A DNA stretch of 64,000 nt from an uncultured Actinomycetes bacterium (GTDB taxonomy: Bacteria > Actinomycetota > Acidimicrobiia > Acidimicrobiales > SZUA-35), in assembly GCA_902826025.1 (NCBI GenBank), contig CADEDH010000009.1, forward strand, positions 22,796 through 86,795, written 5' to 3'. Of the stretch, positions 21,301-33,541 are shown piece after piece. The notes below the pieces were generated by a model, which saw only the letters and a program-made list of their open reading frames with translations, did not search any database and had not been told where the DNA came from. Numbering within the stretch: the stretch's first letter is position 1; the number at the start of each line of letters is the position of its first letter. The translations under genes were made by a program, and so were the position numbers.

Positions 21301-22305
21301 TTAATTTCGGGCGGGTAATCCCAGGAACTCGAGGGCATTGGCCCCGAGCGCCCCTTCGTCGATCCCGCAACCAGCGGCGATGGCCTCCTCGACGACGGCC
21401 CGGGGCCCGGCGAACCGCTCAGGCAGGAAGGGGTGGTCGGTGCCGTAGAGCAGGTGGTCGGCGCCGAAACGCTGCACCAGCAGACCGAGGTGGGCCGGGT
21501 CGAACACCAGGCAGTCGGCCCACAGGCGGCGGACCAGCTCGTCGAGGTGCTCGACCGACGGCGCCCCTGGGGCTCGGGTGGCCATGTACCGCAGGCGGGG
21601 ATGGACCCAGGGGTAGGTGCCGCACCCATGGGAAAGGGCGACCCGCAGGCCCGGATGGCGATCGAGGACGCCGCCGAAGACCAGGGCCGAGGCGGCCAGG
21701 GCGGTATCGGTGAGCATCCCCAGGCCGAACTCGTAGGGCTGGCCCTGGCGGCGGATAGCCAGTTCCTGGTGGGCGGGATGGATGAAGACGGGGGTGGCGT
21801 CGGCCGCCGCTGCTTCCCAGAACGGATCGAGCGAGGGATGATCGAGCTCCCTCCCGTCGACCATGGCCGTGATCTCCACCCCGGCCATGCCCAGCTCGCC
21901 CCGCACCCGGGCCAGCTCGGCCAGGGCCCGGTCGGTGTCCTGCAAGGGCAACGCCCCCAACGCCAGGAACCGCCCGCCGGATTCGGCGGCGAAGGCAGCC
22001 AGGGCGTCGTTCTGGGCCGCCAGGAAGCGGGCCGCCTCGGCCGGCGGGGCCCAGTCGACCAGGGTGATCGGCACCGGAGAGATCACCTGGTGGTCGATCC
22101 TGTCGGCGTCCAGCTCGGCCAGGCGGTGGGCGAGGTCGAAACAGGCCGGGCCGACCTTGCGGAACACCACGGACCCGCACATCAGCCGGGGATCGTCGTC
22201 GACCACCAAGCTGGGCCAGCGGCCGTCGCCGGTGGTTGCGGCCAGGTCGGGCAGGCCCCGGGGGAACACGTGGGCGTGGATGTCGACGACGATGGGGTCG
22301 GTCAC
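21301..22305 (-). CDS. Amidohydrolase-2 family protein (ACMSD-like metal-dependent decarboxylase/hydrolase)
   Basis: GTG start at 22305. The VDIHAHVFP motif, FIHPAHQ and LYGTDHPF give the family's metal-ligand pattern. Confidence 0.85.
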   Translation of the reverse strand: MTDPIVVDIHAHVFPRGLPDLAATTGDGRWPSLVVDDDPRLMCGSVVFRKVGPACFDLAHRLAELDADRIDHQVISPVPITLVDWAPPAEAARFLAAQNDALAAFAAESGGRFLALGALPLQDTDRALAELARVRGELGMAGVEITAMVDGRELDHPSLDPFWEAAAADATPVFIHPAHQELAIRRQGQPYEFGLGMLTDTALAASALVFGGVLDRHPGLRVALSHGCGTYPWVHPRLRYMATRAPGAPSVEHLDELVRRLWADCLVFDPAHLGLLVQRFGADHLLYGTDHPFLPERFAGPRAVVEEAIAAGCGIDEGALGANALEFLGLPARN

Positions 22306-22312
22306 GGGGGCC

Positions 22313-23182
22313 TCAGGCGTCGTCGCCGTTGGCGGCGGCCGGCCGAGCCGGGATCTGGGGCCAGTACTTGGCCAGGGCGCCGCCGTCGATCGTCAGGTTG
22401 GACCCCGTCATCAGGGTGGAGGCGTCGGACGCCAGGAACACCACGGGCCCCACGTAATCGGATGGGGTGGGCAGCCGGGGCCACGGGTTCAGGTTCTCGA
22501 ACGCCATCGTGCCGGCTTCGGTGGCCCGGGCCACGGCGGTGCGAAAGCGATCGGCCAGCTCCGGTTCGTCGGGCATGGTGGCGGTGGGGGTGAACCCGTT
22601 GACCCGGATCCCGTGGGGGGCCAGCTCCATGGCCACCGATCGGGTGAAGTTGATCAGCCCGCTCTTGCCGGTGGAGTAGCCGACGTTGCCGGCCTGTCCC
22701 TGCCATGCGGCGGTGGACAGGATGTTGATGATCGATCCCCCGATTCCCCGTTCCACCATGGAGCGGGCCACGGCCTGGGTGACGAGGAAGGCTCCACCCA
22801 GGATGATGTCGATCTGGCGCCGGAACCGCTCCACCGGCATGTCGAGGATGCCCATCGTGTCGAACCGGACGGCGCAGTTGACCAGCACGTCGATGCGGCC
22901 CCAACGCTCCAGCACGGCGGCCACCCCGGCGGCCACCGCCTCGGCGTCGGTCACGTCGAAGGGGACGGCCAGGGCCTCTCCCCCGGCGGCTTCGATCCGG
23001 GCCACCCGGTCGGCCGCCGTGGCCTCGACCACGTCGTTGCAGGCCACCTGGGCCCCGGCGGCGGCCAGGCCCGAGGCCAGCACACCGCCGATGTTGGGGC
23101 TGGTGCCGGTGACCAGTGCCACCTTGCCGTCGAGGGCGCCGGCCAGCGCACCGGGCAGGCCCGTCACCGGGCCGGTTCCCAT
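22313..23182 (-). CDS. SDR family oxidoreductase
   Basis: This is the C-terminal 289 codons of ORF 22313..23473. VALVTGTSPNIGG and YSTGKSG (YxxxK) are present. ATG 23182 overlaps the upstream gene by 19 nt; GTG 23167, which forms a GTGA overlap, is an alternative start. Confidence 0.85.
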   Translation of the reverse strand: MGTGPVTGLPGALAGALDGKVALVTGTSPNIGGVLASGLAAAGAQVACNDVVEATAADRVARIEAAGGEALAVPFDVTDAEAVAAGVAAVLERWGRIDVLVNCAVRFDTMGILDMPVERFRRQIDIILGGAFLVTQAVARSMVERGIGGSIINILSTAAWQGQAGNVGYSTGKSGLINFTRSVAMELAPHGIRVNGFTPTATMPDEPELADRFRTAVARATEAGTMAFENLNPWPRLPTPSDYVGPVVFLASDASTLMTGSNLTIDGGALAKYWPQIPARPAAANGDDA

Positions 23183-24225
23183 TCGGCGAACACCTTGTTG
23201 GAGTTGAAGATCCACGTCTCGACGAACTCGCTCCAACTGAGGGCCGCCCCGAGCTCCCGGGCTGCCCCCAGCAGGGCGAACCAGTTGAGCACCTCCTGTT
23301 GACCGGCGTGGACCACAGCGTCGGTGGTGGTCTTGGCCCAGGTGTCGTAGTCGCCGGCCACCATGGCCTCGTACAAGGTGCGGTCGGCCGGGGTGTCGGG
23401 CCGCAGGCGCCACTGGTGGTCCACCAGGAAGGCGTGCGACCACGACGACGAGGCGATGATCGAGACCCGCCATGGGCTATCGGCCAGCACGCGAGCGGTG
23501 GCGCCGCCCAGATCCATCAGGCGCCACGGCGCCGGCGACGGCGGGTCGAGCTCCAGCGTCTCGCCGAACGGCTTCCAGCCACCCTGGGCCGCGATCACCT
23601 TCGAGCCGTAGCAGTTGATCGGCATCGGCACCATGGGCCAGGGGAAGCCGCCACGGCGGTGGTCGAGGAAGAGCACGGTGTTGAGGAAGGCGTGGGCCAA
23701 CTGCTCGTCGTGGAGGGGCCGGTAGGCGTAGGCGATGTCGAAGCCCCGGTCGAGTAGGGCGCCGGCGATGTGGCGGGCCACGTCGGGTCGGCCCTTGATC
23801 GTGACGGCGTGGTCTTCCGGCTCGTCGGCCCAGTAGCTGGGCACGGCCCGCCCGATCCGGGTGCGGTAGGGGTGGACCGTGCGGTCGGGGTAGGCCAGGA
23901 CCGAGTAGGCCGGGATCAGATCCTCGGTGAAGTTCTCGTACTGGTCGTCGCCGAAGACGATCACCACCTCGGGGTCGAAGCGCTCCAGCGCCGCCCGCAC
24001 CCGGTCGAACCCGGCGATGAGGGCGGCCCGGTGGACCGGGGCCGACGCCTTGCCTCCGTCGCTGCCCCATTCGGCCTGCTGGTCGGCCGGCCAGTTGGCC
24101 GGGTCCTTCGCCTCGGCCGGCACATCCGGGTCGGCCAGCATCCGGTGGTGGATGCCGCTCATGAACTCGTCCCGGCCGGCGAAGGGCGGGTAATGGGTCA
24201 TCCCCAGAAGCTGGATCTCGGCCAT
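23164..24225 (-). CDS. Class III extradiol ring-cleavage dioxygenase (LigB superfamily)
   Basis: ORF of 353 aa. Overall LigB-like layout with LLGMTHYPPF near the N-terminus, VVIVFGDDQYENF, HAFLNTVLFL and IASSSWSHAF. Confidence 0.75.
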   Translation of the reverse strand: MAEIQLLGMTHYPPFAGRDEFMSGIHHRMLADPDVPAEAKDPANWPADQQAEWGSDGGKASAPVHRAALIAGFDRVRAALERFDPEVVIVFGDDQYENFTEDLIPAYSVLAYPDRTVHPYRTRIGRAVPSYWADEPEDHAVTIKGRPDVARHIAGALLDRGFDIAYAYRPLHDEQLAHAFLNTVLFLDHRRGGFPWPMVPMPINCYGSKVIAAQGGWKPFGETLELDPPSPAPWRLMDLGGATARVLADSPWRVSIIASSSWSHAFLVDHQWRLRPDTPADRTLYEAMVAGDYDTWAKTTTDAVVHAGQQEVLNWFALLGAARELGAALSWSEFVETWIFNSNKVFAEWEPAR

Positions 24226-24234
24226 GGGCCAGTA

Positions 24235-25215
24235 TCAGGCGGGCGTGAGCGACAGGGCGCGGATCTCGCCGAAGTCCCGGTCGAGCTTGCGCCAGCTCTG
24301 GGCGTGATCCTCGGTGACGTAGATCTGACCGAACACCGAGCTGGCCAGCGCCACCCCGGGCAGGTCGGGATGATGGGCCTGCCAGTACATGGTGGAGTTC
24401 GGCGTGACCGGCAGCTCGGCCCGTTCCCAGGAGTCTCCGGCGTCACGCGACACCTCGATGGCGCCGGTCTGGCCCGGGATGTAGTCGCCGGCGCACACGA
24501 TCAGGGTGCCGTCGTCCCACGGCTCGCGCACGGCCCGGCAGTAGGCGTACTCCATCTTCGAGCCGGGGAAACCGGCGAACTCGTGCCAGTCCCACGTCTG
24601 GCCCTGGTCGTTGGACCGGGCGAATCCGAACGGCGAGGTGGCCAGCAACTGGGTGCCGGCCGTCGTCTGGCGGATGGCGAACCCGTGCACGTCGTCGTAG
24701 AACTCCGACTGACCGAGGGAAGGCAGTGCGGTCCACGTCTGGCCCCGGTCGTGGCTCACGTGCAGCCCGTTGACCTCGACCGAGGCCCACACCGTGTTCG
24801 CGTCGACCGGGTCGACGATCACGTTGGTGGTGCGGGGAACCCCGATCGGGCACTGCTCGGAGATGCTCGTGTCGAGCGGGTGGAATGACGCCCCGCCGTC
24901 GCTCGAGCACCACACGCCGGGGCGGGTGCCGACGTAGATCCGCTGGTCGTCGTGGGGGTCGAAGGCCAGCGACCAGATGTCGGAATCGATCGTGTTACCG
25001 ATCCGCTCCCAGGTGCCGCCGTTGTCGTCCGAGCGGATCACGCCCACCTGGTCCTGGGCGGCCAGGATCACCCCTGGGGTGTGGGGGCTCACGGCCAGCG
25101 CCCGACAGTTGCACTCGGGCTCCACGCCCCGGAAGATGTGGCGGAACTTGCCGCCCGAGTTGTAGCTCACCCACAGGCCGGCACCCACCGTGCCCACGCC
25201 GATCGTGTAGTCCAC
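24235..25215 (-). CDS. BNR/Asp-box repeat beta-propeller protein (sialidase-fold / Ycf48-like), no signal peptide
   Basis: GTG start at 25215. There are six SxDxGxTW-type Asp boxes: SDDNGGTW, SSDGGASF, SHDRGQTW, SNDQGQTW, SRDAGDSW and TEDHAQSW. Confidence 0.85.
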   Translation of the reverse strand: MDYTIGVGTVGAGLWVSYNSGGKFRHIFRGVEPECNCRALAVSPHTPGVILAAQDQVGVIRSDDNGGTWERIGNTIDSDIWSLAFDPHDDQRIYVGTRPGVWCSSDGGASFHPLDTSISEQCPIGVPRTTNVIVDPVDANTVWASVEVNGLHVSHDRGQTWTALPSLGQSEFYDDVHGFAIRQTTAGTQLLATSPFGFARSNDQGQTWDWHEFAGFPGSKMEYAYCRAVREPWDDGTLIVCAGDYIPGQTGAIEVSRDAGDSWERAELPVTPNSTMYWQAHHPDLPGVALASSVFGQIYVTEDHAQSWRKLDRDFGEIRALSLTPA

Positions 25216-25311: not shown

Positions 25312-25371
25312 CTGGTGACCTGAGACCCTTTTCCTGCTGAGCCAAACCTCCTAGGGTGTCCGTGGCGTGCC

Positions 25372-25986
25372 GTGACCATGCCTGCGGCGCTCCGAGACAC
25401 GTTGCCGACCTCCCCGGCGCCGGGCCCGGCGGTGACCGCGGTCGGTCAGCGAGGCTGGGGCGGCGAGCGAACCGAGCAGCAAGTGACCTTTCCGGAGCCT
25501 GAATTCGAAGCGTTCTTCCACGCCCACTACGACCAGCTCGTCCGCTCGTTGACCCTGATCACGGGCGACCGGGAGGCGGCCCGGGACTGTGTGCAGGAAG
25601 CGTTCATCAAGGCCTCCACCCGCTGGCGCAAGGTGCGCCGGTACGACAACCCGGTCGGTTGGGTGCGGCGGGTGGCGATCAACCAGGGCCGTGACGCCCA
25701 CCGGTCCAGTCAGCGCCGAAAACGGCGGGAATCGCTCGACCGGCCGACGCCGGAGCACGACCACGCCCCGGGAGTGGCGGGCGAACTGCGCCTGCTCGAC
25801 CTCCTGGCCGGGCTGCCGCCGCAGCAACGCAGCGCCGCCGCGCTGTTCTACATCGACGACCTCCCGATCGCCGACATCGCCGTGGATCTCGGCATTTCGG
25901 TGGGGGCGGTCAAGTTCCATCTGAATCAGGCGCGGCGATCGCTGCGCCTGGCCATGGATGCGGAGGGGCACCACCATGGGCGTTGA
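25372..25986 (+). CDS. ECF-type RNA polymerase sigma-70 family factor
   Basis: Region 2 reads FEAFFHAHYDQLVRSLTLITGDREAARDCVQEAFIKASTRW...NPVGWVRRVAIN. Region 4 reads LAGLPPQQRSAAALFYIDDLPIADIAVDLGISVGAVKFHLNQAR. The start is GTG 25372 or ATG 25378. Confidence 0.9.
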   Translation: MTMPAALRDTLPTSPAPGPAVTAVGQRGWGGERTEQQVTFPEPEFEAFFHAHYDQLVRSLTLITGDREAARDCVQEAFIKASTRWRKVRRYDNPVGWVRRVAINQGRDAHRSSQRRKRRESLDRPTPEHDHAPGVAGELRLLDLLAGLPPQQRSAAALFYIDDLPIADIAVDLGISVGAVKFHLNQARRSLRLAMDAEGHHHGR

Positions 25987-26992
25987 CAACAGTCGAGGCG
26001 CCAATCCATTCGACGACGGCTGGGACGAGGACGGCTGGGACCTCTACGACGACGGCTCCGACGACGGCCGGTGGCCTCCCGACGACCAGTCCGACGACCA
26101 GTCCGGGTGGGCCGATGCCGAGCTCGACGGCCATGTCCGCCAGCGGCTGGCCACGCTGGTGCCGCTGCGCCACGAGGCGTTCGACCGCTGGGACGAGCTG
26201 CAGCCCCGCATGACCCGGGCCCGACGCCGTCGCCATGCCGTCCAGGCCCTGGCCACTTCCGTGCTGGTGGCGGCCATCGCCCTGGTCGGCGTGCAGGGAG
26301 CAACCCGGTTCCTACCCCAGGACACCTCGGTGGTCTCGGCGGCCGACGGCGGCGAGGGCATGTCCACCTCCGACTCGCAGCGTCCCATGGTGGGCATCGG
26401 CGAGGCGTCGAGCACGATCTCCGCCGACGGTGGCACCACCACTCCCCCGTCGGGCGACGCCACGGAGAAACCGGGAGGCGAGCCGGCCGACGGCGAGGCG
26501 GCACCCCCCGACGACGGCACGGGCACCGATGCCCCCGTCGGCGAGGAGACCAGCCTCCCGGTGGCCGACGAGCCCGGATCCGTTGCCGGCTCGTCGGCGC
26601 CGGTGAACGGCGGCTCGGCCGCCTCGTCGGTGAGCATCCCGCCGCCGACCACCACCACCGCTCCGACCAGCAGCCCCACGTCGCGGAGCACGAGCACAAC
26701 CCGGGCCCCGACGTCCACCACCTGGCCTTCGACGACCACCACCCGGGCCACCACCACGTCGACCACGGTCATCACGGCGCGTGACCTCTCCACCATCGAC
26801 GTGACCGTGCACGGCACCGAGATCCGCCTCGTCGCCATCCACAACGCACCGGGCGTGACCTCCCAGGTCCACAACGGTGGGCCGGAGAAGATCGAGATCA
26901 CCTTCACCAAGGGGTCCGAGAAGCACGACCTGGTCGCCACGGTGCGGAACGGCAACGTGGTCACGTCAATCGTCGACTCCGACGACGATTGA
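25976..26992 (+). CDS. Single-pass membrane protein in the anti-sigma position: acidic Trp-rich N-terminus, TM helix, Thr/Pro-rich linker and a ~68-aa C-terminal domain
   Basis: The ATG at 25976 (or 25958) overlaps the sigma gene end. The N-terminus is PFDDGWDEDGWDLYDDGSDDGRWPPDD, the TM helix is AVQALATSVLVAAIALVGV, the linker is TTTAPTSSPTSRSTSTTRAPTSTT, and the C-terminal block is IDVTVHGTEIRLVAIHN...ITFTKGSEKHDLVATVRNG. There is no zf-HC2 motif, so the anti-sigma role is inferred from position only. Confidence 0.7.
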   Translation: MGVDNSRGANPFDDGWDEDGWDLYDDGSDDGRWPPDDQSDDQSGWADAELDGHVRQRLATLVPLRHEAFDRWDELQPRMTRARRRRHAVQALATSVLVAAIALVGVQGATRFLPQDTSVVSAADGGEGMSTSDSQRPMVGIGEASSTISADGGTTTPPSGDATEKPGGEPADGEAAPPDDGTGTDAPVGEETSLPVADEPGSVAGSSAPVNGGSAASSVSIPPPTTTTAPTSSPTSRSTSTTRAPTSTTWPSTTTTRATTTSTTVITARDLSTIDVTVHGTEIRLVAIHNAPGVTSQVHNGGPEKIEITFTKGSEKHDLVATVRNGNVVTSIVDSDDD

Positions 26993-27074
26993 GCCCATCG
27001 CCCTGGGTGATTCTTCCCGCCCGAGCCAAACCAATCCCCCCTCGGGCGACGTCAGCCCTCACGGAAGGAGCACC

Positions 27075-27875
27075 GTGACCCCTCTACCAGGCGCAGTACA
27101 GAGCACCGGCCTCATCCTGGCCACCGTCCTCGCCGCCGCCGGCCTGAACCTCGGCGTCATGTCGCTGGGCCAGGCCGAAGGCGAGGGGGCCGACGTCGAG
27201 ACGGCGGCCACCCTCACCTCGGCCGACGCCGGCCTCCTGCCCCTCAGCGACACCGCCCCAGCGGCCGTCGATCCCGGCACCGTCACCACGGTGCTGCCCA
27301 CCGATCCGGCGGCGACCGGCTCCGCCCCTGGCAACGGGAGCACCCTGCCGGCCGGCACCGGCGTCGCCCCGGGCCTACCGGTCTCGTCCGGTACCAGCTC
27401 CAGCCCACCCATCGCCTCGAGCACGGCGGCACCGGCCGCCGCCAACACCGCACCAGCCAGCAGCCAGCAGATCACGGCCACCACCCGGCCGGCCAGCAGC
27501 CAGGCTACGAACACCCTTCCCCCGGCCACGGTGACCACCGCGCGGCCTACCGTCACCATCCCTTCCACCCCCTCCACCACGGCCCGGCCCACCACCACCG
27601 CCCTGCCCGCCACGAGCACCACCCGGGCCCCTCAGACCTCCACCTACGACCACATCGTCACCGGTGCCGGCTCGCTCACCGTGTCGGTCACCGACGGCGC
27701 CCGGCTCGGCCTGGTGTCGGCGAGCGAGGCCAGCGGTTGGTCGCACACCGTGGACACCAATCGGGCCGACCTGGTGAAGGTCGTGTTCACCCGACGGGGC
27801 AGCGAGATCGCCGTTTCGGTAACCCTCCGAAACGGCGTGCCGAACTTCACCGAGGAGCGAAGCAACGATGATTGA
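27075..27875 (+). CDS. Secreted or membrane-anchored Thr/Pro/Ala-rich protein whose C-terminal domain is paralogous to that of the preceding gene
   Basis: GTG 27075 is preceded by ggaagga, in the frame of ORF 26877..27875. The N-terminal hydrophobic segment is GLILATVLAAAGLNLGVMSLGQA. A long low-complexity region follows, and the C-terminal block is LTVSVTDGARLGLVSASE...VVFTRRGSEIAVSVTLRNG. Confidence 0.7.
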   Translation: MTPLPGAVQSTGLILATVLAAAGLNLGVMSLGQAEGEGADVETAATLTSADAGLLPLSDTAPAAVDPGTVTTVLPTDPAATGSAPGNGSTLPAGTGVAPGLPVSSGTSSSPPIASSTAAPAAANTAPASSQQITATTRPASSQATNTLPPATVTTARPTVTIPSTPSTTARPTTTALPATSTTRAPQTSTYDHIVTGAGSLTVSVTDGARLGLVSASEASGWSHTVDTNRADLVKVVFTRRGSEIAVSVTLRNGVPNFTEERSNDD

Positions 27876-28956
27876 CGAGCCCACGACCGAGGAGCGCCTG
27901 GCGGCCCTCCTCGCCCGCCGCTCCGGCCAGGCGGACAGCCGTCCGGCCGGCCGGAAGCCGAAGGGCGGGGTGGCCCCGATGCGCTCACGGCGGGCCCAGG
28001 ACGGGCCGCCGCCGCCGGTCGCCAGCACCCAGCCCATAGCCGCCACTGGGTTCGACCGGTCCTTTGATCGCTGGCCGGGCAGCTGGGACGACGCCCCGCA
28101 CCCAGCTGCTCCGGCTGGCCCATCATCGGGTGGCCCGTCCGGCGGGGTGTTCGACTTCGACACGCCCGGGTGGCCCGCCCCCGTTCAGGAACACCGTCCC
28201 GGCCCCACACGCAGCGGCCCGGCCCGCCGGCTCCTGGCCGACAACACGATGCCCCTGGCTGCCGTCCCGTCGTCCTCGATCGACGACGACGCCACCGTGG
28301 GCGACCGCCTGCGGGACAGCGCCGACCGCTGGATGAGATCCTGGTCACCCAGCCGGCTCGTGGCCAGCGGGGCGTCGGCGGTCTCGTTCGCCGCCATGGT
28401 CGTGGCCATGGGTCCCCTGCTCCAACCCGACGACGAGGCGACCACCGAGGCCGGCACCGGTGAGGCTGACGCCACCCTCGCCTCGGCCGTCGATGCCCCG
28501 GCGGTGAGCATCTCGGTCGATCCCCTGGCCGGAGCGCCTGGGACCCCACTCGACGCCACGGGCCAACCGGTACCCCTGTCGGCCACGGCCCCCGAAGGCG
28601 CTCTGCCCGCTACGGCGTCGTCGGTGACCGTGACCGGCGCCGCCTCGTCCACCGCGGCCAGCGCGGCCTCCACGGGGTCGACCACCAAGCCCGCGGCCGG
28701 CGGCCCCGCCAGCTCGGCCGCCCAGGGCACCACCCCGCCCTCGGCCGCTCCCACCACCCAGCCGCCGGCCACCGCCGCCCCCACCACGGCCAAGCCCGGC
28801 TCCTCGGCCGCTCCCACCACCCAGCCGCCGGCCACCGCCGCCCCCACCACGCAGGCCCCCACCACGGCCGCTCCCACCACCCAGCCCCCTACCACGCAGC
28901 CGCCCACCACGGCCAAGCCCACCACCACGGCACCCCCCACCACCAAGGGGAGTTGA
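27868..28956 (+). CDS. Single-pass membrane protein with an extracytoplasmic Ala/Pro/Thr tandem-repeat tail
   Basis: ORF of 362 aa. Its ATG overlaps the previous gene by 8 nt. There is a central TM helix, ASGASAVSFAAMVVAMGPLL. The tail consists of 21-aa repeats, SAAPTTQPPATAAPTT.... Confidence 0.65.
   Translation: MIDEPTTEERLAALLARRSGQADSRPAGRKPKGGVAPMRSRRAQDGPPPPVASTQPIAATGFDRSFDRWPGSWDDAPHPAAPAGPSSGGPSGGVFDFDTPGWPAPVQEHRPGPTRSGPARRLLADNTMPLAAVPSSSIDDDATVGDRLRDSADRWMRSWSPSRLVASGASAVSFAAMVVAMGPLLQPDDEATTEAGTGEADATLASAVDAPAVSISVDPLAGAPGTPLDATGQPVPLSATAPEGALPATASSVTVTGAASSTAASAASTGSTTKPAAGGPASSAAQGTTPPSAAPTTQPPATAAPTTAKPGSSAAPTTQPPATAAPTTQAPTTAAPTTQPPTTQPPTTAKPTTTAPPTTKGS
28741..28920. repeat. 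In-frame 63-nt tandem repeat (~2.9 copies) inside the CDS 27868..28956
   Basis: The 48-mer tcggccgctcccaccacccagccgccggccaccgccgcccccaccacg occurs identically at 28741-28788 and 28804-28851. A degenerate third copy starts near 28867. The unit encodes SAAPTTQPPATAAPTT. Confidence 0.85.
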
Positions 28957-28958
28957 CG

Positions 28959-30116
28959 ATGCCGACCCGCAGCGAGGGCGGGCCCGCATCCTCCATCGTC
29001 TCCCCCTGCCGCCCGCTGCCCGCCGACGGCCCGGCCCGCGGGACCATCCGCACCCTCCCGCGGGCCGAGGAGCCGTCGCTCCCCGGTCGGCCCCTGGAGG
29101 CCGACCGACTCCCGCCGGCGCCCGACCTGGTCCCGGTGGCCACCGTCGCCTTCGAAGCCCTCGGCACATCGTGCCGGGTGGTCGTTGGCGGATCCGGCGA
29201 CGACGCCGGCCTGGCGGCGGCCGCCGCGGAACAGGTACGTCAGCTGGAGCGCCGCTGGAGCCGCTTCCTCCCCGACAGCGAGATCTGTGGGCTGAACCGC
29301 CATCGGGGGCGGCTGACGATCGTGTCGGCGGCCACGTTCGAGTTGGTCCAGCGGGCCGAGCAGGCCCGGGTGGTCACCGGCGGCCGGTTCAACCCGCTAC
29401 TTCTCGATCAGCTCGAAGCGGCCGGCTACCGCCGGTCGTGGCTGGGCGGTGGCCAGCCCGGGCCCGCCGGCGGCGCCGACGAGGTCGAGCCGGTGCCCGG
29501 CAGCGGCGACCCGATTGAACTGCTGGCCGAGGTCAACGGGGTGCGGCTGCCCGCCGGCACCCGATTCGACCCGGGCGGCATCGGCAAAGGCCTGGCCGTG
29601 GACCGGGTCACCGGATGGTGCCGGGTCGAAGGGGCCACCACGGTCTGCGTCGACCTGGGCGGAGACCTCCGGGTGCACGGCCAGCCGTGGTACGGCCCCC
29701 GCTGGCGGATCGGGGTCGACCATCCGCTCGCCCCGGGCACCGAGCTGGGCGCGTTCACCCCCGACAGTGGGGCGGTCACCACGAGCACCACCCTGCGTCG
29801 GTCCTGGCCTGGTCCCGGCGGCCAACGCCTCCATCACCTGATCGACCCGACCACCGGGCGCCCGTCGTCCACGGACGTGGTGGCCGTCACCACCTGCTCC
29901 TCGCAGGCCTGGTGGGCCGAGGTGGCGGCCAAGGCCGCCCTCCTGGCCGGGGCGGCCAATTCCCTCGGGGTACTGGCTGACATGGGCACCCCGGGCATCG
30001 TGGTGACAGCCGGAGGCGACATCCTCCGGTGGAACGGCGACCGACCCCCGGGCGACGACGAACGACACAGCGAGCGCGCCACCAGCGGTGGCGGCGCAGG
30101 AAGGACGGCGGCATGA
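28959..30116 (+). CDS. apbE: FAD:protein FMN transferase (ApbE family)
   Basis: ALGTSCRVVV, FLPDSEICGLNR, GGRFNP, FDPGGIGKGLAVDRV, VDLGGDL, AVTTSTT and HHLIDPTTGRP are the conserved ApbE blocks. The start is ATG 28959 or TTG 28953, the latter overlapping the upstream stop. Confidence 0.88.
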   Translation: MPTRSEGGPASSIVSPCRPLPADGPARGTIRTLPRAEEPSLPGRPLEADRLPPAPDLVPVATVAFEALGTSCRVVVGGSGDDAGLAAAAAEQVRQLERRWSRFLPDSEICGLNRHRGRLTIVSAATFELVQRAEQARVVTGGRFNPLLLDQLEAAGYRRSWLGGGQPGPAGGADEVEPVPGSGDPIELLAEVNGVRLPAGTRFDPGGIGKGLAVDRVTGWCRVEGATTVCVDLGGDLRVHGQPWYGPRWRIGVDHPLAPGTELGAFTPDSGAVTTSTTLRRSWPGPGGQRLHHLIDPTTGRPSSTDVVAVTTCSSQAWWAEVAAKAALLAGAANSLGVLADMGTPGIVVTAGGDILRWNGDRPPGDDERHSERATSGGGAGRTAA

Positions 30117-30733
30117 ACCCGCAGATCTGGTGGTTCGCCGCCCGCTCAGGTGGCATCGTGGCCTGGGCCCTCGTTACGGCATCGGTCTGCTGGGGGCTGA
30201 TGCTCTCCACCAAGGCAGCGTCGAAGGCCAGCCCCCCGGCCAAGCTGCTCGACCTGCACCGGTTCTTCGGCATGGCCGCCCTGCTGTTCACCGGCGTCCA
30301 TATCGCCGGGCTCGTGGCCGACACCTACGTCCACTTCGGCTGGCTCGAGGTGCTGGTGCCATGGGCTTCGGAGTGGCAGCCCACCAACGTGGCCTGGGGT
30401 GTGATCGGCTTCTACCTGCTGGTGGCGGTGGAACTCACGTCGCTGGTGATGAAGCGGATTCCACGGGCCCTGTGGCGCCAGATCCACCGCACCAGCTTCG
30501 GGTTGTACGTGTTCGCCACGTATCACGGCATGACGGCCGGCTCCGACACGTCCAACCAATGGTACCGGATGGTGATGCTGGCCTCGATCAACGTGGTGGC
30601 CTTCCTCACCATCCTCGCCATCCTGGCCCATCGCCAGGCCGGCAACCGCCAGGTGCGCTCGGTGGGCCGGCCAGGCGCCCGGGGCGAAGCCGACCGGCCC
30701 CGGCCGGCGTCTCGCCAGGCTCGGGCCAGCTGA
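30113..30733 (+). CDS. Ferric-reductase-like transmembrane (di-heme, MsrQ/YedZ-like) protein
   Basis: ATG 30113 overlaps the apbE stop (ATGA). The product has 6 predicted TM helices with paired His residues: LHRFFGMAALLFTGVHIAG and IHRTSFGLYVFATYHG. Confidence 0.75.
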   Translation: MNPQIWWFAARSGGIVAWALVTASVCWGLMLSTKAASKASPPAKLLDLHRFFGMAALLFTGVHIAGLVADTYVHFGWLEVLVPWASEWQPTNVAWGVIGFYLLVAVELTSLVMKRIPRALWRQIHRTSFGLYVFATYHGMTAGSDTSNQWYRMVMLASINVVAFLTILAILAHRQAGNRQVRSVGRPGARGEADRPRPASRQARAS

Positions 30734-30811
30734 CGGCGGTCGCCGCCCCGGGGCGGCAGACAGATCGTTTCAACCTGAACTCAACGTCCGTCGTTGTCTA
30801 GGCTCCCGGGC

Positions 30812-32284
30812 GTGACCACTCGCCTCACTCTTTCCTCCGGAGTCATCGAAGGAACCCGCCTCGACACCGGCGTCACCGCCTACCTCGGCGTGCCCTATGC
30901 CGCTCCGCCGGTCGGCGACCGGCGGTTCCGGCCGCCAGCGCCGGTCGAGCCGTGGGACGGCGTGCGGTCGGCCACCGCGCTCGCCCCGGCGCCCATGCAG
31001 GGCGCCCCGTCCCCCGGACGGTTCCTGGCCGACCTGTCGTCACCCCACAAGAGCGAGGACTGCCTCAACCTCAACGTGTGGACCCCCAGCGCCGACCCGG
31101 AGGCCCGGCTACCGGTGATGGTGTGGATCTACGGCGGGGCGTTCGTGGCCGGCTCCAATGGCGTCCCGGCCTACGACGGGGCCCGGCTGGCCGCCCGGGG
31201 CGTGGTGGTGGTGAGCGTCAACTACCGCCTCGGGCTGCTGGGGTGGCTGCGTTGCCCGGCCATCGGGGCCAGCGGCAACGAGGCTCTGGCCGACCAGCGG
31301 GCGGCGCTCGACTGGGTCCAACGCGAGATCGCCGGTTTCGGCGGCGACCCCGCCAACGTGACCGTGTTCGGCGAGTCGGCCGGGGCCACCTCCATCGCCT
31401 CCCACCTGGCCGCCGGGGCCACCGGCGGCTTCACCCGGGCCGTTCTCCAATCGGGCTCGTACAACCTGGTCTCTTCCGTGGCCGAGGCCGACGACACCGC
31501 AGGCCGGGTGCTGGCCCACCTCGGGGTATCAGCCGACAAGCTGCGGGAGCTGCCGGTGGAGACCCTGATGGCGGCCCAGGACGCGGCCACTCCCCGGTCG
31601 GGCGGCGTCTTCTACCGCCCGGTGACCGACGGAGGTCTGGTGCCCGAGGACCCGGGCGGGGTGCTGGCGGCCGGGCTCGGCGTCCCGGTGCTGTGTGGCA
31701 CCAACCGTCACGAGATGGGCTTCTTCTGGGGCCGCGACGAGCGCTTCGACCAGGTGACCGACGACCAGCTGCGCTCCCTGGTGGGCCGGTGGCACGAGCA
31801 TCCCGACGATGTGGTGTCGACCTACCGGCGGGCCCGCACCCTGTCCCGGGAGCCGGTGGGCAATCGCGACCTGGCCATCGCCATCGGATCAGATTGGACG
31901 TTCCGGGCCGCCTCGGTCGCCGTGGCCGGATGGCAGGCGGCGTCGGGCCCGGCCCACATGTACCGCTTCGACTGGGAGAGCCCCCTGTTCGACGGCCTCA
32001 TCGGAGCGGCCCACGTGCTCGAGGTGCCGTTCGTGTTCGGCACCTACGACCACCCAACGATCGCCGGCTTCACCGGGTACGACCGCTGCCCCGAACAGGT
32101 GGCGGCGCTGTCGGACGAGATGGCCAGGGCGTGGGTGGCCTACGCCACCGACGGCAACCCGGGTTGGCCCCGCTACGACAACCGGCGCCGGGTCACCCGC
32201 ACCTTCGGCGGCCCCCGCAAGACGATGGACGGCCCCAACCACCTCGAGCTCGCTCTCTGGGATCCCCGCCACCTCCACCGGTGA
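30812..32284 (+). CDS. Type B carboxylesterase / lipase (para-nitrobenzyl-esterase-like)
   Basis: YLGVPYAAPPVG, EDCLNLNVW, GGAFVAGS and the nucleophile elbow FGESAGA are present. I set the start at GTG 30812; the track start TTG 30794 is possible. Confidence 0.92.
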   Translation: MTTRLTLSSGVIEGTRLDTGVTAYLGVPYAAPPVGDRRFRPPAPVEPWDGVRSATALAPAPMQGAPSPGRFLADLSSPHKSEDCLNLNVWTPSADPEARLPVMVWIYGGAFVAGSNGVPAYDGARLAARGVVVVSVNYRLGLLGWLRCPAIGASGNEALADQRAALDWVQREIAGFGGDPANVTVFGESAGATSIASHLAAGATGGFTRAVLQSGSYNLVSSVAEADDTAGRVLAHLGVSADKLRELPVETLMAAQDAATPRSGGVFYRPVTDGGLVPEDPGGVLAAGLGVPVLCGTNRHEMGFFWGRDERFDQVTDDQLRSLVGRWHEHPDDVVSTYRRARTLSREPVGNRDLAIAIGSDWTFRAASVAVAGWQAASGPAHMYRFDWESPLFDGLIGAAHVLEVPFVFGTYDHPTIAGFTGYDRCPEQVAALSDEMARAWVAYATDGNPGWPRYDNRRRVTRTFGGPRKTMDGPNHLELALWDPRHLHR

Positions 32285-32353
32285 TGCGATGCCCTCGGGC
32301 GACGCGAGACACCTCGGGAGCGCAACCACATCGCCGTCGCCCCGCGATGGCCG

Positions 32354-33541
32354 TCAGCTCTTGGCTCGCGTCACCCGGCTCATGGGTACGGTCCGGGCCA
32401 GGTTCTCCACCCGGTGGTGCTCCACCACCAACATGGCCAGCAGGACGGCGTCCACCGCCATCAACACCAGCACCCCGTCCAGACGGGAGACGGCGGCGAT
32501 GACGGCCACCAGCGCGGCGGCCGCCACCAGCCGCTCCACCGCCAGCGCCCCGAAGGCCCGGACCACCGCCAGCACCACCCCCAGCAGGTAGAGCACGAGG
32601 CCGGCCCCCAGGTGGACCAGTGACGGCACGGCGATCGGCTCACCCGGATGGAGGGTGATCGTCTTCAGGCCCGCGGTACACAGGATCACCCCCGCCACCA
32701 GCGGGTAGTGGGCATAGGTGTACACGTCCCGGGCGAACCGGCCCCGGAGCTGACCCCCCTCCAGCGCCTCGTGTCGGTGCTCCAGCGCCGGCAACGGACG
32801 GTCGAAGTAACCCCACCACAACAGGCCGGCGAACACGCCGGCCGCCACCAGAGCGACCAGGTTGGCCGGGGCCACTCCCTCGTTGTCGGCCAGGGCGTTG
32901 GTGAGCGGTAGGCCCAGGGCCACGATCACCTCCCCCAGCGCCACGATCACGATGAGCCCGTGCCGCTCGGCGAAGTGCCCGGGGCGGACCAGCCACTCAC
33001 TCTGCCCGGCGCCGATCGTGCCGGCTATGACGATCACCATGGCCGCCGACCACGACACCACCCGCGAGGTGAAGGGCACGAAGCCGCCGGCCACCATGAG
33101 CGTGATGGCGATCCAGTTGGGAATCGAGTACCGCACGATCGAGGCCCGGACCACGGGCTCGTCGCCCAGCCCGCTGATCATCGTGAACAGGCCCATGGCC
33201 AGGATCACCGACGCCGACAGGGCGAAGGCCGCGCCACCGGCGGCGTACGCCCCCACCACCGATGCGGCCATGGGGATGCTGGCCACGGTGGCCACCAGGA
33301 ACAGCAGCCGCACCGGGCGGCTGTTGCCGGCCACGGCATTGGCCGACCACGTGAACTGGGTCCACGGCAGCCACACCATCGTGAACAGGAGCACGAACTC
33401 GGCGGCGCCGGCCCAGGTCGGGTGGGTGACCAGAAAGGACACCAGCTGGGAGAAGGCGAACACGAACACCAGGTCGAAGAACAGCTCGCCGGCATCGGCG
33501 GCGAAGTCTTCCTCACGCTCGGGGACGGGAACGCCTCGCAT
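32354..33541 (-). CDS. Low-temperature-requirement A (LtrA) family membrane protein
   Basis: ORF of 395 aa. The N-terminal ELFFDLVFVFAFSQL signature is followed by a polytopic hydrophobic body. Confidence 0.85.
   Translation of the reverse strand: MRGVPVPEREEDFAADAGELFFDLVFVFAFSQLVSFLVTHPTWAGAAEFVLLFTMVWLPWTQFTWSANAVAGNSRPVRLLFLVATVASIPMAASVVGAYAAGGAAFALSASVILAMGLFTMISGLGDEPVVRASIVRYSIPNWIAITLMVAGGFVPFTSRVVSWSAAMVIVIAGTIGAGQSEWLVRPGHFAERHGLIVIVALGEVIVALGLPLTNALADNEGVAPANLVALVAAGVFAGLLWWGYFDRPLPALEHRHEALEGGQLRGRFARDVYTYAHYPLVAGVILCTAGLKTITLHPGEPIAVPSLVHLGAGLVLYLLGVVLAVVRAFGALAVERLVAAAALVAVIAAVSRLDGVLVLMAVDAVLLAMLVVEHHRVENLARTVPMSRVTRAKS

Follow-up and report, generated by a model that had tools for sequence, protein, structure and literature searches.

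Clusters of MsrQ-like and ApbE genes are typical of Actinobacteria (PMC8238504). A block of six genes from an Acidimicrobiia bacterium of wastewater origin raises the question of what an ApbE-family protein and a ferric-reductase-like cytochrome do behind an ECF sigma factor when no FMN_bind (PF04205) gene accompanies them. The block lies in a 64 kb stretch of DNA, called the window below, which was analysed as a whole. A preliminary description had claimed six coupled plus-strand genes, and the block proved real. All six open reading frames were present on the plus strand, and every junction was recovered, namely 11 nt between the sigma factor gene and g2, 8 nt at 27868, TTG/ATG at 28953/28959 and ATGA at 30113 (Table 1). 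The sigma factor could also start at a GTG at 25372, and g5, whose ATG lies 2 nt past the g4 stop behind AAGGGGAG, has an alternative TTG start at 28953. A long open reading frame would place the start of g3 at 26877; this is not likely and the GTG behind GGAAGGAG is preferred, leaving a gap of 82 nt between g2 and g3. As had been noted, g2, g3 and g4 have a single hydrophobic segment each and abound in Thr and Pro; Ser and Ala are abundant as well. None has a significant Pfam match, and neither FMN_bind nor zf-HC2 was found in the three proteins by Pfam even at E ≤ 1, in agreement with the reported lack of a canonical FMN_bind protein and of zf-HC2 in the anti-sigma-positioned gene.

Table 1. 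Genes, candidate promoters and candidate acceptor of the block, with positions in the window
Feature	Position	Strand	Remarks
g1, ECF (group 4) sigma factor, 202 aa	25378-25986	+	Pfam Sigma70_r2 and Sigma70_r4_2
g2, anti-sigma-positioned bitopic protein, 338 aa	25976-26992	+	11-nt overlap with sigma
g3, signal-peptide or signal-anchor protein, 266 aa	27075-27875	+	GTG start behind GGAAGGAG
g4, bitopic protein, 362 aa	27868-28956	+	8-nt overlap ATGATTGA with g3
g5, ApbE-family protein (FAD:protein FMN transferase family), 385 aa	28959-30116	+	Pfam PF02424
g6, ferric-reductase-like cytochrome b, 206 aa	30113-30733	+	Pfam PF01794; ATGA overlap with g5
P1, candidate ECF-type promoter CCAAACC-N16-GCGTG	25342-25369	+	Motif match before sigma
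P2, candidate ECF-type promoter CCAAACC-N16-ACGTC	27026-27053	+	Motif match in the 82-nt g2-g3 gap
g4 C-terminal tag T-K-G-S then stop, candidate flavin acceptor	28942-28953	+	Conserved tail end

Conservation of the block in relatives

The arrangement is far from chance, and the same order recurs across many independent genomes. At least 12 Acidimicrobiia lineages keep the block as a unit, with flanking genes that differ in all of them, and synteny holds at about 50% protein identity. The six genes have an identical order in L001, L004, L011, L015, L016, L018, L019, L092, L094 and L095, and L090 has the same order without ApbE. Synteny was not lost in relatives, and the claim of a conserved unit stands. 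The ApbE and ferric-reductase-like genes are adjacent in nearly all of the approximately 60 loci having upstream sequence. In 30-34 of the 38 evaluable loci the gene just before ApbE, or before the cytochrome in loci without ApbE, is g4-like, and the 8-nt g3/g4 overlap, GATGA(C/T)TGA, is kept in distant loci. Distant relatives, one of them from another phylum (L009), keep g3-g6 with a two-component system replacing the sigma factor. Fur and ZnuABC-type genes were found next door in L092; this neighbourhood is not conserved.

Sigma factor, candidate promoters and a shared beta-domain

The g1 product was recognized by the NCBIfam sigma70-ECF model (75 bits, cut-off 42.9) and scored just below the cut-off of the actinobacterial SigE-like family, TIGR02983 (SigE-fam_strep, 130.7 against 141.55 bits). 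As in that family, a two-domain sigma factor is followed by an overlapping single-pass membrane protein, and an AAC...CGT-type promoter precedes the sigma factor's own gene. The whole 64 kb window was searched with the pattern C[CA]AAACC-N15-17-[ACG]CGT[GC] and exactly two matches were found, one before the sigma gene and one before g3, against 0.25 expected. P1 ends about 8 nt before the sigma ATG, and its transcript would be leaderless or nearly so. Its position is conserved in the ten lineages with identical gene order and in L090; P2 is conserved before g3 in eight of these eleven and takes a variant form (ACAAACC or CCCAACC) in L092, L019 and L090. The same motif precedes a paralogous beta-domain and ApbE locus (L007, position 6883) in the genome of L001. 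Its presence before both the sigma gene and g3, kept in all sigma-bearing relatives examined, suggests autoregulation of the sigma factor and sigma control of g3-g6. The block was thus correctly described as standing behind its own ECF sigma factor, in that a candidate sigma-dependent promoter precedes both genes; sigma control itself applies to one subclade only, as deeper relatives use the two-component system. The region was almost absent from the RNA runs.

The g2 gene follows the sigma factor in every sigma-bearing relative. In its product an acidic N-terminal cytoplasmic part is followed by a transmembrane segment (about aa 86-110), and a Thr/Ser/Pro linker leads to a C-terminal beta-domain (profile match at aa 279-351 of the open frame) that carries a Cys pair in most relatives. 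From its position, g2 is a candidate anti-sigma factor. Unlike the partners of SigE-like sigma factors, it has no zf-HC2 or other known anti-sigma domain, and its putative sensor domain is the paralogue of a presumed regulon product.

This C-terminal domain of about 75 aa is common to g2 and g3 (34% identity, E = 5e-9), and within the window its profile matches these two proteins only. It is confined to the sigma-bearing subclade and has no Pfam match. An AlphaFold2 model of the g3 copy (pLDDT 93) has seven strands, and a PDB structure search with it gave no match at E < 0.3. The domain as modelled is small, all-beta and of no known family or fold, which agrees with the novel domain that the preliminary description had seen in two of the proteins. 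In g3 it follows a conserved ..AAGLNLGVMSLG.. segment and a Thr/Pro linker and precedes an acidic end (..SNDD); relatives of g3 have an acidic/His-rich tail in place of, or besides, the beta-domain. g3 is predicted to be a signal-anchored or secreted accessory protein.

The ApbE-family protein and the cytochrome

Pfam searches bore out the identification of g5 as ApbE (PF02424, E = 7.5e-44) and of g6 as a Ferric_reduct protein (PF01794, 34.4 bits, cut-off 28). The g5 sequence matched the PDB entries 1vrm, 4xdt and 6nxi and begins with a disordered extension of about 65 aa. No signal peptide, lipobox, transmembrane segment or hydrophobic N-terminus was found in the ApbE clade (about 50-60 relatives or loci), and on this basis g5 is predicted to be cytosolic; the extracytoplasmic flavinylation proposed earlier does not agree with this result. 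With residue roles taken from PMC12052999, the catalytic Ser276 and His293 are conserved and are strictly retained in the clade. At the metal site, Glu321 replaces Asp and Lys325 replaces a metal-ligand Thr, and the same Mg2+-site changes extend through the clade (Glu for Asp in 50 of 51, Lys for Thr in 45 of 51), so that the protein may catalyse differently or not at all. A cytosolic ApbE is known from Klebsiella pneumoniae, where it flavinylates a soluble fumarate reductase (PMC12052999). Both proteins are without a secretion signal; however, the Klebsiella ApbE acts on a cytosolic enzyme that has the canonical FMN_bind domain and motif, the block encodes no such protein, and the partner genes of g5 encode membrane or exported proteins.

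In g6, the pairs H49/H63 and H125/H138, spaced by 13-14 residues, are invariant in 73 sequences, and these four histidines are enough for two haems. The protein is probably a five-helix, di-haem type cytochrome b. Conserved residues on its outer face are WW..ARSGG, D70, P83 and AG[ST]D, and its C-terminal tail is Arg-rich. The AlphaFold2 model (pLDDT 82) has five long helices, and its best PDB matches were SpNOX, STEAP2 and the NOX5 transmembrane domain. The two His pairs on two helices, their spacing and PF01794 are shared with the NOX/STEAP/MsrQ (YedZ) superfamily, from which g6 differs by its size of 206 aa with five long helices, by having no fused flavin or NAD(P)H domain and by the family's own signature residues, WW..ARSGG and AG[ST]D. 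Among its 2223 homologues, all 120 among the matches listed are stand-alone proteins of about 167-217 aa.

The tail end of g4 and competing explanations

The canonical acceptor motif D-x-x-[ST]-G-A-[ST] is not in the block, and no convincing copy was found in any high-GC3 frame of the 64 kb window. A scan of the three membrane proteins, which had been taken as equivalent substitutes for an FMN_bind protein, found none with a conserved canonical motif, and the equivalence did not hold: g2 is an anti-sigma-positioned sensor, g3 an accessory protein, and only g4 is constantly tied to ApbE. The g4 protein, for which neither Pfam nor NCBIfam gave a match, has an N-terminal cytoplasmic part with a TEERLAALLARR helix, followed by a transmembrane segment (aa 163-185). 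The tail beyond it, about 175 aa long, is disordered, first acidic and then rich in Ala/Pro/Thr, and has no folded domain. The flanking charges, +3 before and -5 after the segment, indicate an N-in/C-out orientation. An SGAS at the start of the segment was rejected as an acceptor motif; it reads GGAA/GSAA in L016 and L020.

Only one extracytoplasmic feature of g4 is conserved universally: at the very C-terminus, the long disordered tether ends in a degenerate tag, [ST]-x-[GAS]-S. Of 32 non-redundant tails, 31 have it at 0-2 residues from the C-terminus, where 3.4% would be expected from the composition of the tails themselves; it was also found in P0131-P0138. It is present whether the junction is an overlap, of up to 14 nt, or a gap, of up to 87 nt. 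At five overlapping g4/ApbE junctions, the ApbE codon is a rare A-ending synonym, by which the Ser is kept in the g4 frame. The codon of the terminal Ser is AGY in 31/32, against 22% in tail bodies, so that part of the signal may reflect a ribosome-binding site or an overlap constraint of the gene that follows. Given its conservation and the position of g4 directly upstream of ApbE, the tail end is a candidate minimal flavinylation tag. A 7-residue C-terminal tag suffices for ApbE (PMC12052999). Like this engineered Flavin-tag (D-x-x-[ST]-G-A-[ST]), which works best at a terminus, the g4 tag is a short terminal peptide without a folded domain, with [ST] at -3, a small residue at -1 and Ser last or nearly last. 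Against this reading, it has no Asp at -6, position -2 is variable, Ser is used and not Thr, and the tag is still kept in L090 and L078-L081, where ApbE is absent from the module. No natural domain-less substrate of this kind is reported in the papers cited here. The g4 tail is predicted to be outside and ApbE has no export signal, so flavinylation would have to precede export. We know of no precedent for this order of events with ApbE.

The six-gene unit is an undescribed form of flavin-based envelope electron transfer, of the MsrQ-like flavinylation type. We favour, at about even chances, the reading that regulation and function join the six genes in a single module for envelope electron transfer, controlled by an ECF sigma/anti-sigma pair of its own. 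g1 would transcribe g1 and g2 from P1 and g3-g4-g5-g6 from P2, and g2 would keep the sigma factor at the membrane and sense the outside through its small beta-domain, the paralogue of a domain on g3, itself a product of the operon under control. g6 would carry electrons from the cytoplasmic face through two haems to the strongly conserved outer-face site. g4 would stand in for the usual FMN_bind protein; g5, as a cytosolic flavin transferase tied to g4, would attach FMN to its C-terminal tag, presumably before the tail is exported or as this happens, and the tethered flavin would take electrons from the outer haem and hand them to an extracytoplasmic acceptor. The acidic/His-rich regions of g3 may serve to display a metal cation or a different acceptor. 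A small two-haem cytochrome, an ApbE lacking an export signal and two odd membrane-anchored proteins thus appear to be turned on by a stress sigma factor of their own. The block encodes no cytoplasmic electron donor, which counts against this explanation. Of the envelope redox or flavinylation module first proposed, the conserved sigma-linked unit stood, and the extracytoplasmic ApbE and the equivalent substrates did not.

MsrQ-like flavinylation systems (Meheust et al. 2021, eLife, PMC8238504; Huang et al. 2024, PMC11334425) likewise have a PF01794 two-haem protein beside apbE, with the same proposed role of passing electrons from the cell interior to an extracytosolic flavin. In contrast to them, the block has no FMN_bind gene, its cytochrome has neither an NAD-binding domain nor a NuoF-like partner, its ApbE has no signal peptide, and it adds two bitopic proteins as well as an ECF sigma/anti-sigma pair of its own (deeper relatives have a two-component system instead). 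The survey of these systems removed genes without a signal peptide (PMC8238504), and would presumably have missed the present ApbE clade. In Bifidobacterium breve, sifABCDE and apbE tie an actinobacterial ferric-reductase protein and ApbE to iron-limited growth (PMC5449479), a parallel that makes metal reduction a plausible physiological theme; SifE carries an FMN-binding domain and belongs to a transporter operon, whereas the block has no transporter genes.

It is unlikely, on balance, that g5 is no transferase but a cytosolic flavin-carrying input subunit of g6 (a 'split NOX'), whose FAD, its isoalloxazine ring exposed, would dock on the inner side of g6 and pass electrons to the inner haem, with structural or acceptor-presenting roles for g3 and g4 as subunits. 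The clade-wide absence of a signal peptide and changes of the Mg2+ site, the missing canonical motif and the lack in g6 of the FAD/NAD domains usual in MsrQ-like and NOX proteins (PMC8238504) agree with such a role, and ApbE-bound FAD has a solvent-exposed isoalloxazine ring (reviewed in PMC12052999). However, the clade strictly keeps the catalytic Ser and His, there is no NAD(P)H-binding element through which the flavin could be reduced, the L090 module does without an adjacent ApbE, and the same-clade ApbE paralogue in L007 lies beside a secreted beta-domain protein with no cytochrome nearby.

Somewhat less probable is a canonical FMN_bind (or DUF2271/DUF3570) substrate elsewhere in the genome, in which case g2, g3 and g4 would have envelope, regulatory or assembly roles and just happen to lie in the same operon. 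The window covers only 64 kb of the genome, the block has no canonical motif, and the genomes of L001 and L004 hold extra ApbE paralogues, which makes flavinylation targets outside the block possible. Yet g4 and ApbE stay immediate neighbours, their stop and start codons often overlapping, in deeply diverged loci, one of them from another phylum (L009); no FMN_bind gene lies within 7-10 kb in any locus with Pfam-annotated gene calls, and the high-GC3 frames of the window gave no convincing motif.

Flavinylation of g6 by ApbE, at the A-G-[S/T]-D loop by the outer haem ligand H138 or at one of the conserved inner-face Ser/Thr residues (S32/T33, T109/S110, S128), is improbable. A142, G143, S/T144 and D145 are 97-100% conserved (T-A-G-S in the window sequence), ApbE adjoins g6 in nearly every locus, the ATGA overlap couples their translation, and flavinylation of integral membrane subunits has precedents in NqrB and RnfD (PMC11334425). 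Nevertheless, the known motif has G and A in the opposite order, and most relatives have Gln or Gly at position -3. The positive-inside rule and NOX homology place the loop on the outer side, opposite to a cytosolic ApbE, no motif surrounds the Ser/Thr residues of the inner face, and the ApbE paralogue of L007 would be left unexplained.

That the sigma/anti-sigma pair and g3-g6 are two unlinked neighbours, as the g3-g6 modules without any sigma factor in deeper relatives might suggest, or that the Thr/Pro-rich open reading frames, which have open alternative frames, are not real genes is very improbable, since every sigma-bearing lineage examined has the promoter motif before both the sigma gene and g3, the beta-domain common to g2 and g3 is confined to the sigma-bearing subclade, and the transmembrane segments, the N-terminal helix and the C-terminal tag are conserved at the protein level.

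Gene order and conservation of the block

The block g1-g6 is a conserved, self-contained module at 25.3-30.7 kb of the window, where six genes lie on the plus strand; it is predicted to be sigma-regulated and to serve electron transfer in the envelope. The open reading frames, their junctions, the Pfam and NCBIfam matches and the domain common to g2 and g3 were all recovered, confirming that the gene block of the preliminary description exists.

Coordinates of the six genes of the block and of the two candidate promoters preceding g1 and g3
Feature	Position in window	Strand	Remarks
P1	25342-25369		candidate ECF-type promoter before g1
g1	25378-25986	+	ECF sigma factor
g2	25976-26992	+	anti-sigma-positioned gene; 11-nt overlap with g1
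P2	27026-27053		candidate ECF-type promoter before g3
g3	27075-27875	+	membrane protein; GTG start behind GGAAGGAG
g4	27868-28956	+	membrane protein; overlaps g3 by 8 nt
g5	28959-30116	+	ApbE; starts 2 nt past the g4 stop
g6	30113-30733	+	cytochrome; ATGA overlap with g5

Pfam and NCBIfam support g1 (regions 2 and 4), g5 (ApbE) and g6 (Ferric_reduct), and neither gave a match for g2, g3 or g4. These three proteins have one hydrophobic segment each and a region rich in Thr, Pro, Ser and Ala. The Pfam families proposed for checking gave matches to PF02424 and PF01794, and PF04205 was absent from the block. A longer g3 open reading frame from 26877, implicit in the earlier annotation, has an unlikely start in comparison with the GTG, which leaves an 82-nt gap between g2 and g3. 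The GC content of the window is about 72%. Across the block (window 26000-30000) the GC skew is -0.12 to -0.14 and the AT skew rises, a shift that the low-complexity g2-g4 genes produce as a compositional artefact through their ACC/CCG/GCC-rich Thr, Pro and Ala codons and that is neither a replication nor an island signal. An Rfam scan of the window detected no FMN riboswitch and no other family.

The nearest relatives of the window are Acidimicrobiia/Acidimicrobiales MAGs, and wastewater metagenomes contain nearly identical sequence. Scans of genomes with ApbE and of metagenomes with the g6 alignment produced 89 loci (labeled L001 and so on in this analysis), and look-ups of g6 homologues added further loci with gene calls and Pfam labels. 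The complete order sigma-g2-g3-g4-ApbE-g6 was found in L001, L004, L011, L015, L016, L018, L019, L092, L094 and L095, among which ApbE identity goes down to about 50% and sigma factor identity to 50-58%. Since the genes flanking the unit vary from genome to genome, the six genes travel together, as expected of the conserved unit proposed before. The same order without ApbE is present in L090. Distant loci, in which g6 is about 50% identical, have neither the sigma factor nor the beta-domain (the C-terminal domain of g2 and g3) and keep a four-gene core. This core consists of a small, signal-anchored g3-like protein whose C-terminus is acidic and often rich in His, a small bitopic g4-like protein with a low-complexity tail, ApbE and g6; even here the 8-nt overlap of g3 and g4 (GATGA[C/T]TGA) is retained. 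An OmpR-type response regulator and a histidine kinase adjoin the core in L009, which comes from another phylum (Candidatus Sysuimicrobiota), and in L030, L036, L045/L047, L052 and L073. NCBIfam assigned no specific regulon to the two-component systems beside distant loci; the top match of one response regulator was the heavy-metal subfamily, below its cut-off.

Several neighboring genes were recorded. Upstream of the block, the minus-strand genes at 21301-25215 of the window encode Amidohydro_2, a short-chain dehydrogenase, a LigB-type extradiol dioxygenase and a BNR/Sortilin-Vps10-like beta-propeller protein. They resemble a cluster for the catabolism of aromatic compounds, which is kept in close relatives only and is unrelated to the block. 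Downstream, 30794-33541 holds the gene of a type-B carboxylesterase (COesterase, E = 2e-95) and a minus-strand gene for an LtrA-family membrane protein, both syntenic in the closest relatives only. In L092 (26-3913), the sigma gene is directly preceded by a Fur-family regulator, a ZnuA/ABC-3 metal uptake operon and DsbA, an arrangement that is not conserved at the other loci.

The ApbE enzyme and the cytochrome

The g5 protein matched PF02424 with 150.7 bits (E = 7.5e-44, profile positions 1-256 of 266), and its sequence matches ApbE/Ftp structures in the PDB. The extracytoplasmic action attributed to this ApbE by the preliminary description is not borne out. No hydrophobic N-terminal segment or lipobox was found in g5 or in about 60 relatives, many of which start 8-15 residues ahead of the conserved F-x-A-M-G motif, and a cytosolic location is predicted from this property of the clade. 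Cytosolic ApbEs are known, together with a cytosolic FMN_bind substrate (PMC12052999). The N-terminal extension of g5, about 65 aa (window 28959-29150), is disordered, variable and fast-evolving; that of L004 contains four tandem EQRSAP repeats (7998-8200), and deeper relatives have no extension.

The Vibrio (V. cholerae) ApbE has the conserved catalytic residues Ser241, His257 and Asp285 (PMC12052999). The equivalent residues of g5 were read from an alignment to 1vrm, 4xdt and 6nxi and across 51 clade members. The Ser position is occupied by Ser in 46/51 and by Thr in 4, the His position by His in all 51, and the Asp position by Glu in 50/51, a conservative substitution. The Thr four residues after the Asp (ADALAT/ADALST motif), which is a Mg2+ ligand in the Ftp structures, is replaced by Lys in 45/51 and is Thr in 5/51. 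On the basis of these alignments, the g5 clade is a distinct ApbE subfamily. A 2021 survey removed ApbE and FMN_bind genes without a signal peptide (PMC8238504), and the clade was therefore probably not counted in it; the accessible part of its supplementary tables has no Acidimicrobiia rows.

The g6 protein matched PF01794 with 34.4 bits (gathering score, 28) over profile positions 2-120 of 121. All 73 non-identical g6 sequences have H49, H63, H125 and H138, which form two pairs, 14 and 13 residues apart, on model helices 43-69 and 118-142. NOX and STEAP likewise carry His pairs with similar spacing on two helices, and g6 is predicted to bind haem through bis-His ligation. The AlphaFold2 model has five long helices (pLDDT 82), the number also given by hydropathy, rather than the six transmembrane helices characteristic of Ferric_reduct; these five correspond to NOX helices 2-6. 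The best PDB neighbors were Streptococcus pneumoniae NOX, STEAP2 and the NOX5 transmembrane domain, with Foldseek probabilities of 0.99-1.0, query-normalised TM-scores of 0.33-0.54 and weak E-values. From the charge distribution and the homology to NOX, the cytoplasmic side would hold the Arg-rich C-terminus as well as the loops that follow helices 1 and 3. The other invariant residues are an N-terminal WW..ARSGG, D70, P83 and A142-G143-[S/T]144-D145, and with the predicted topology they would lie close together on the outer face, surrounding the outer haem, which fits a conserved extracytoplasmic reaction or docking site. A total of 2223 g6 homologues were found, the best 120 of which are stand-alone proteins of about 167-217 aa without a NAD/FAD domain.

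The C-terminal tag of g4 and the candidate flavin acceptor

The domains FMN_bind, DUF2271 and DUF3570 were absent from the block and from the Pfam-labeled neighbors in four relatives, and g2-g4 gave no match to flavinylation-substrate domains at E <= 1. These results, together with the lack of Pfam matches for g2-g4, agree with the unconventional partners suggested earlier. A scan of the coding-like frames of the window gave no convincing D-x-x-[ST]-G-A-[ST]. The only copy of the shorter [ST]GA[ST] in g2-g4 is the SGAS at the start of the g4 transmembrane segment (aa 167-170). It is not conserved: it reads GGAA/GSAA in L016 and L020 and is absent in deeper relatives. The T-G-A-G-S at the start of the g3 beta-domain is not conserved either, and both were discarded as acceptors. 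Outside the block, the only [ST]GA[ST] in a confidently coding frame is in ..RGTVSGATSG.., within a large minus-strand open reading frame that runs off the end of the window (61678-63999); it has no Asp at -6.

The three envelope proteins had been treated as equivalent substrates, a view contradicted by their positions and sequences. Among 38 loci with enough upstream sequence, 30-34 have a g4-type gene directly before ApbE, or before g6 if ApbE is missing, and g4 alone occupies this place and has a conserved Ser tag. The N-terminus of g4 (EERLAALxARR) and its transmembrane segment are conserved within the subclade, and the tails are unalignable (median end-anchored identity, 17.5%) except for their final four to six residues. 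Across 32 non-redundant tails, Ser stands at position 0 and Ser or Thr at position -3 without exception, 31 tails have Gly, Ala or Ser at position -1, and only 0-2 residues follow the motif. The end-anchored motif, [ST]-x-[GAS]-S, was observed in 31/32 tails versus 3.4% predicted from its frequency inside them, and six further homologues retrieved by database searches end in the same way. The tag resembles the ApbE motif [ST]-G-A-[ST] and reads S-G-A-S in L013 and L018. For flavinylation, a C-terminal tag of 7 residues is reported to suffice fully (PMC12052999). The g4 orthologue of L095 (5263-6108) seems frame-shifted in the tail, and its called product ends in a His/Gly/Cys-rich out-of-frame stretch, probably through an assembly or calling error in low-complexity DNA.

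The motif could also be a mere by-product of the Shine-Dalgarno sequence of the next gene. The terminal Ser codon is AGY in 31/32 tails versus 22% in tail bodies, and a ribosome-binding-site or overlap constraint therefore contributes; this bias supports some constraint at the nucleotide level and leaves the by-product explanation with some probability. The motif is nevertheless retained where the next start is 40-87 nt away (L078-L080, L090), a distance at which it cannot be a ribosome-binding site, and where ApbE starts ahead of the motif. In addition, five junctions overlap by 10-14 nt, and the ApbE codon that overlaps the tag there is a rare A-ending synonym (GCA, CAA or CCA; GCA represents 6-15% of the Ala codons of these ApbE genes), which preserves the Ser in the g4 frame. 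For these three reasons we consider the tag a genuine feature at the protein level, and on sequence grounds it is the best candidate flavin acceptor. A g4-ApbE fusion made by frameshift or read-through, which would tether ApbE outside, was ruled out because frame (-1 in the window and L016, +1 in L018, in frame in L032 and L073) and spacing (overlaps of 1-14 nt, gaps up to 15 nt) differ between lineages.

The charges around the transmembrane segment of g4 are +3 before and -5 after it, and by the positive-inside rule the tail is predicted to be outside; the predicted place of ApbE is inside. This leaves three possibilities: modification of the tail ahead of or during its export, a different role for ApbE, or an unrecognised export route. 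The short ancestral g4 forms of 110-130 aa could plausibly be modified before export, since these would be completed before membrane targeting, and a loose parallel is the glycosylation that exported adhesins receive in the cytoplasm. The flavin-tag step on g4 is doubtful mainly because of this conflict. The complete pathway, which we consider unlikely as a whole, would make g4 a natural domain-less substrate: a membrane-anchored, disordered Thr/Pro/Ala tether of about 70-180 residues, the last Ser of which would receive FMN from a cytosolic, metal-site-altered ApbE ahead of tail export. This flavin on a leash would be reduced by the outer haem of the minimal NOX-like cytochrome and could reach acceptors away from the membrane. 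If true, modification of the tail in the cytosol would spare a Gram-positive cell the export of FAD.

The block is related to the MsrQ-like flavinylation systems but lacks three of their defining features, namely the FMN_bind protein, the exported ApbE and the NAD-binding input. The definition of these systems is PF01794 in a cluster with an apbE and/or FMN_bind gene bearing a signal peptide (PMC8238504); in the block PF01794 adjoins apbE, but this ApbE has no signal peptide, and no PF04205 protein is encoded in the block or among the neighboring called genes. The block adds to the scheme two bitopic proteins, one of them with the conserved C-terminal Ser tag. Envelope electron transfer by flavinylation is widespread, and published surveys rest on FMN_bind-type domains and signal-peptide-bearing components. 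The module, common in Acidimicrobiia and reaching another phylum, has neither and is therefore probably in a blind spot of these surveys. If the g4 tag is a real acceptor, it would define the smallest known natural ApbE substrate and demonstrate flavinylation ahead of export, and abundant actinobacteria of wastewater, soil and marine habitats could use the tethered extracellular flavin to reduce metals or for extracellular electron transfer.

The sigma factor, its candidate promoter motif and the beta-domain

The g1 protein (202 aa) matched Sigma70_r2 (E = 3.9e-9), Sigma70_r4_2 (E = 2.6e-14) and TIGR02937 (75.3 bits; cut-off, 42.9). With regions 2 and 4 only and a length of about 200 aa, its sequence classifies it as an ECF (group 4) sigma factor. 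The nearest family is SigE (TIGR02983), against which it scored 130.7 bits, under the curated cut-off of 141.55. The window has exactly two copies of the 10-mer GAGCCAAACC, 5' of g1 and 5' of g3, and the pattern C[CA]AAACC-N15-17-[ACG]CGT[GC] has its only two window matches at the same sites (0.25 expected). ECF promoters in general show an AAC...CGT architecture. The motif is found at both corresponding positions in L001, L004, L011, L015, L016, L018, L094 and L095, and as variants in L019, L090 and L092 (-35 element ACAAACC or CCCAACC; -10 element CGTA or CGTT). It also precedes a secreted double-beta-domain protein followed by a signal-less ApbE paralogue at L007, a second locus in the L001 genome, and a divergently transcribed small ferredoxin in L090. 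From this phylogenetic footprint we infer that g1 would autoregulate from P1 and drive g3-g6 from P2. The sigma control postulated in the preliminary description agrees with a motif that stands before g1 and g3 and is kept at both places in sigma-bearing relatives. A simple scan found neither a sigma-70 promoter nor an intrinsic terminator in the window and was uninformative because of the 72% GC; almost none of the block region was represented in the RNA runs. With a readable candidate promoter motif and a predicted two-promoter regulon, the block offers a clean new ECF sigma system, independently of the g4-tag question. The L090 ferredoxin (74 aa, Fer4_15/Fer4_13; 5619-5940, minus strand), whose gene interrupts the g2-g3 junction, may supply the cytochrome with electrons on the cytoplasmic side.

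As noted earlier, g2 has no zf-HC2 motif: the protein gave no Pfam match at E <= 1, and its N-terminal part is free of Cys. It lacks this H-x3-C-x2-C zinc motif of ZAS anti-sigma factors and any known anti-sigma domain in Pfam. The uncharacterised C-terminal domain said to be shared by two of the three envelope proteins was verified in g2 and g3 (about 75 residues, 34% identity, E = 5e-9). This beta-domain has no Pfam match, and its model, a seven-strand antiparallel beta structure (pLDDT 93), has no PDB neighbor better than E = 0.3; a hidden FMN_bind or PepSY domain was ruled out on both counts. A profile search of a 5.8-billion-protein set returned only 3 proteins, one of them a lipoprotein version, and a search of 1.84 billion representatives with the g4 N-terminus returned 8; both families are hard to reach by sequence. 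The beta-domain is limited to the sigma-bearing subclade plus L025 and L029. In most relatives (L016, L018, L090, L092, L094 and L095), a pair of cysteines is present on strands 1 and 6 of the g2 copy, in the contexts ..SCGSI.. and ..GxCE[IV]K..; both cysteines were lost in the window lineage (26780-26992). Because the sensor domain is paralogous to a regulon product and often has a potential disulfide, g2 may sense the extracytoplasmic redox state or competition for a shared partner. An anti-sigma sensor of this kind suggests a feedback or partner-competition mechanism.

The g3 proteins of relatives contain acidic/His-rich stretches, such as HDDDDDEHDEHDDHDDEHEYEGHESREHEDDDD in L092 and an insert in L095, which hint at cation binding and, if the ferric-reductase fold is also considered, at the reduction of metals. 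Growth of Bifidobacterium under iron limitation has been tied to an FMN-binding ferric reductase and to apbE (PMC5449479). Finally, a paralogous two-gene locus is present in the genomes of L001 (L007, 6883-8942) and L004 (L008), without an adjacent cytochrome and with a CCAAACC-N16-CGTC motif in front. It encodes a signal-peptide protein with two beta-domain copies and the tail ..KSAPSGA(A) and, after it, another signal-less member of the g5 clade, a pairing that links the beta-domain directly to this ApbE clade.
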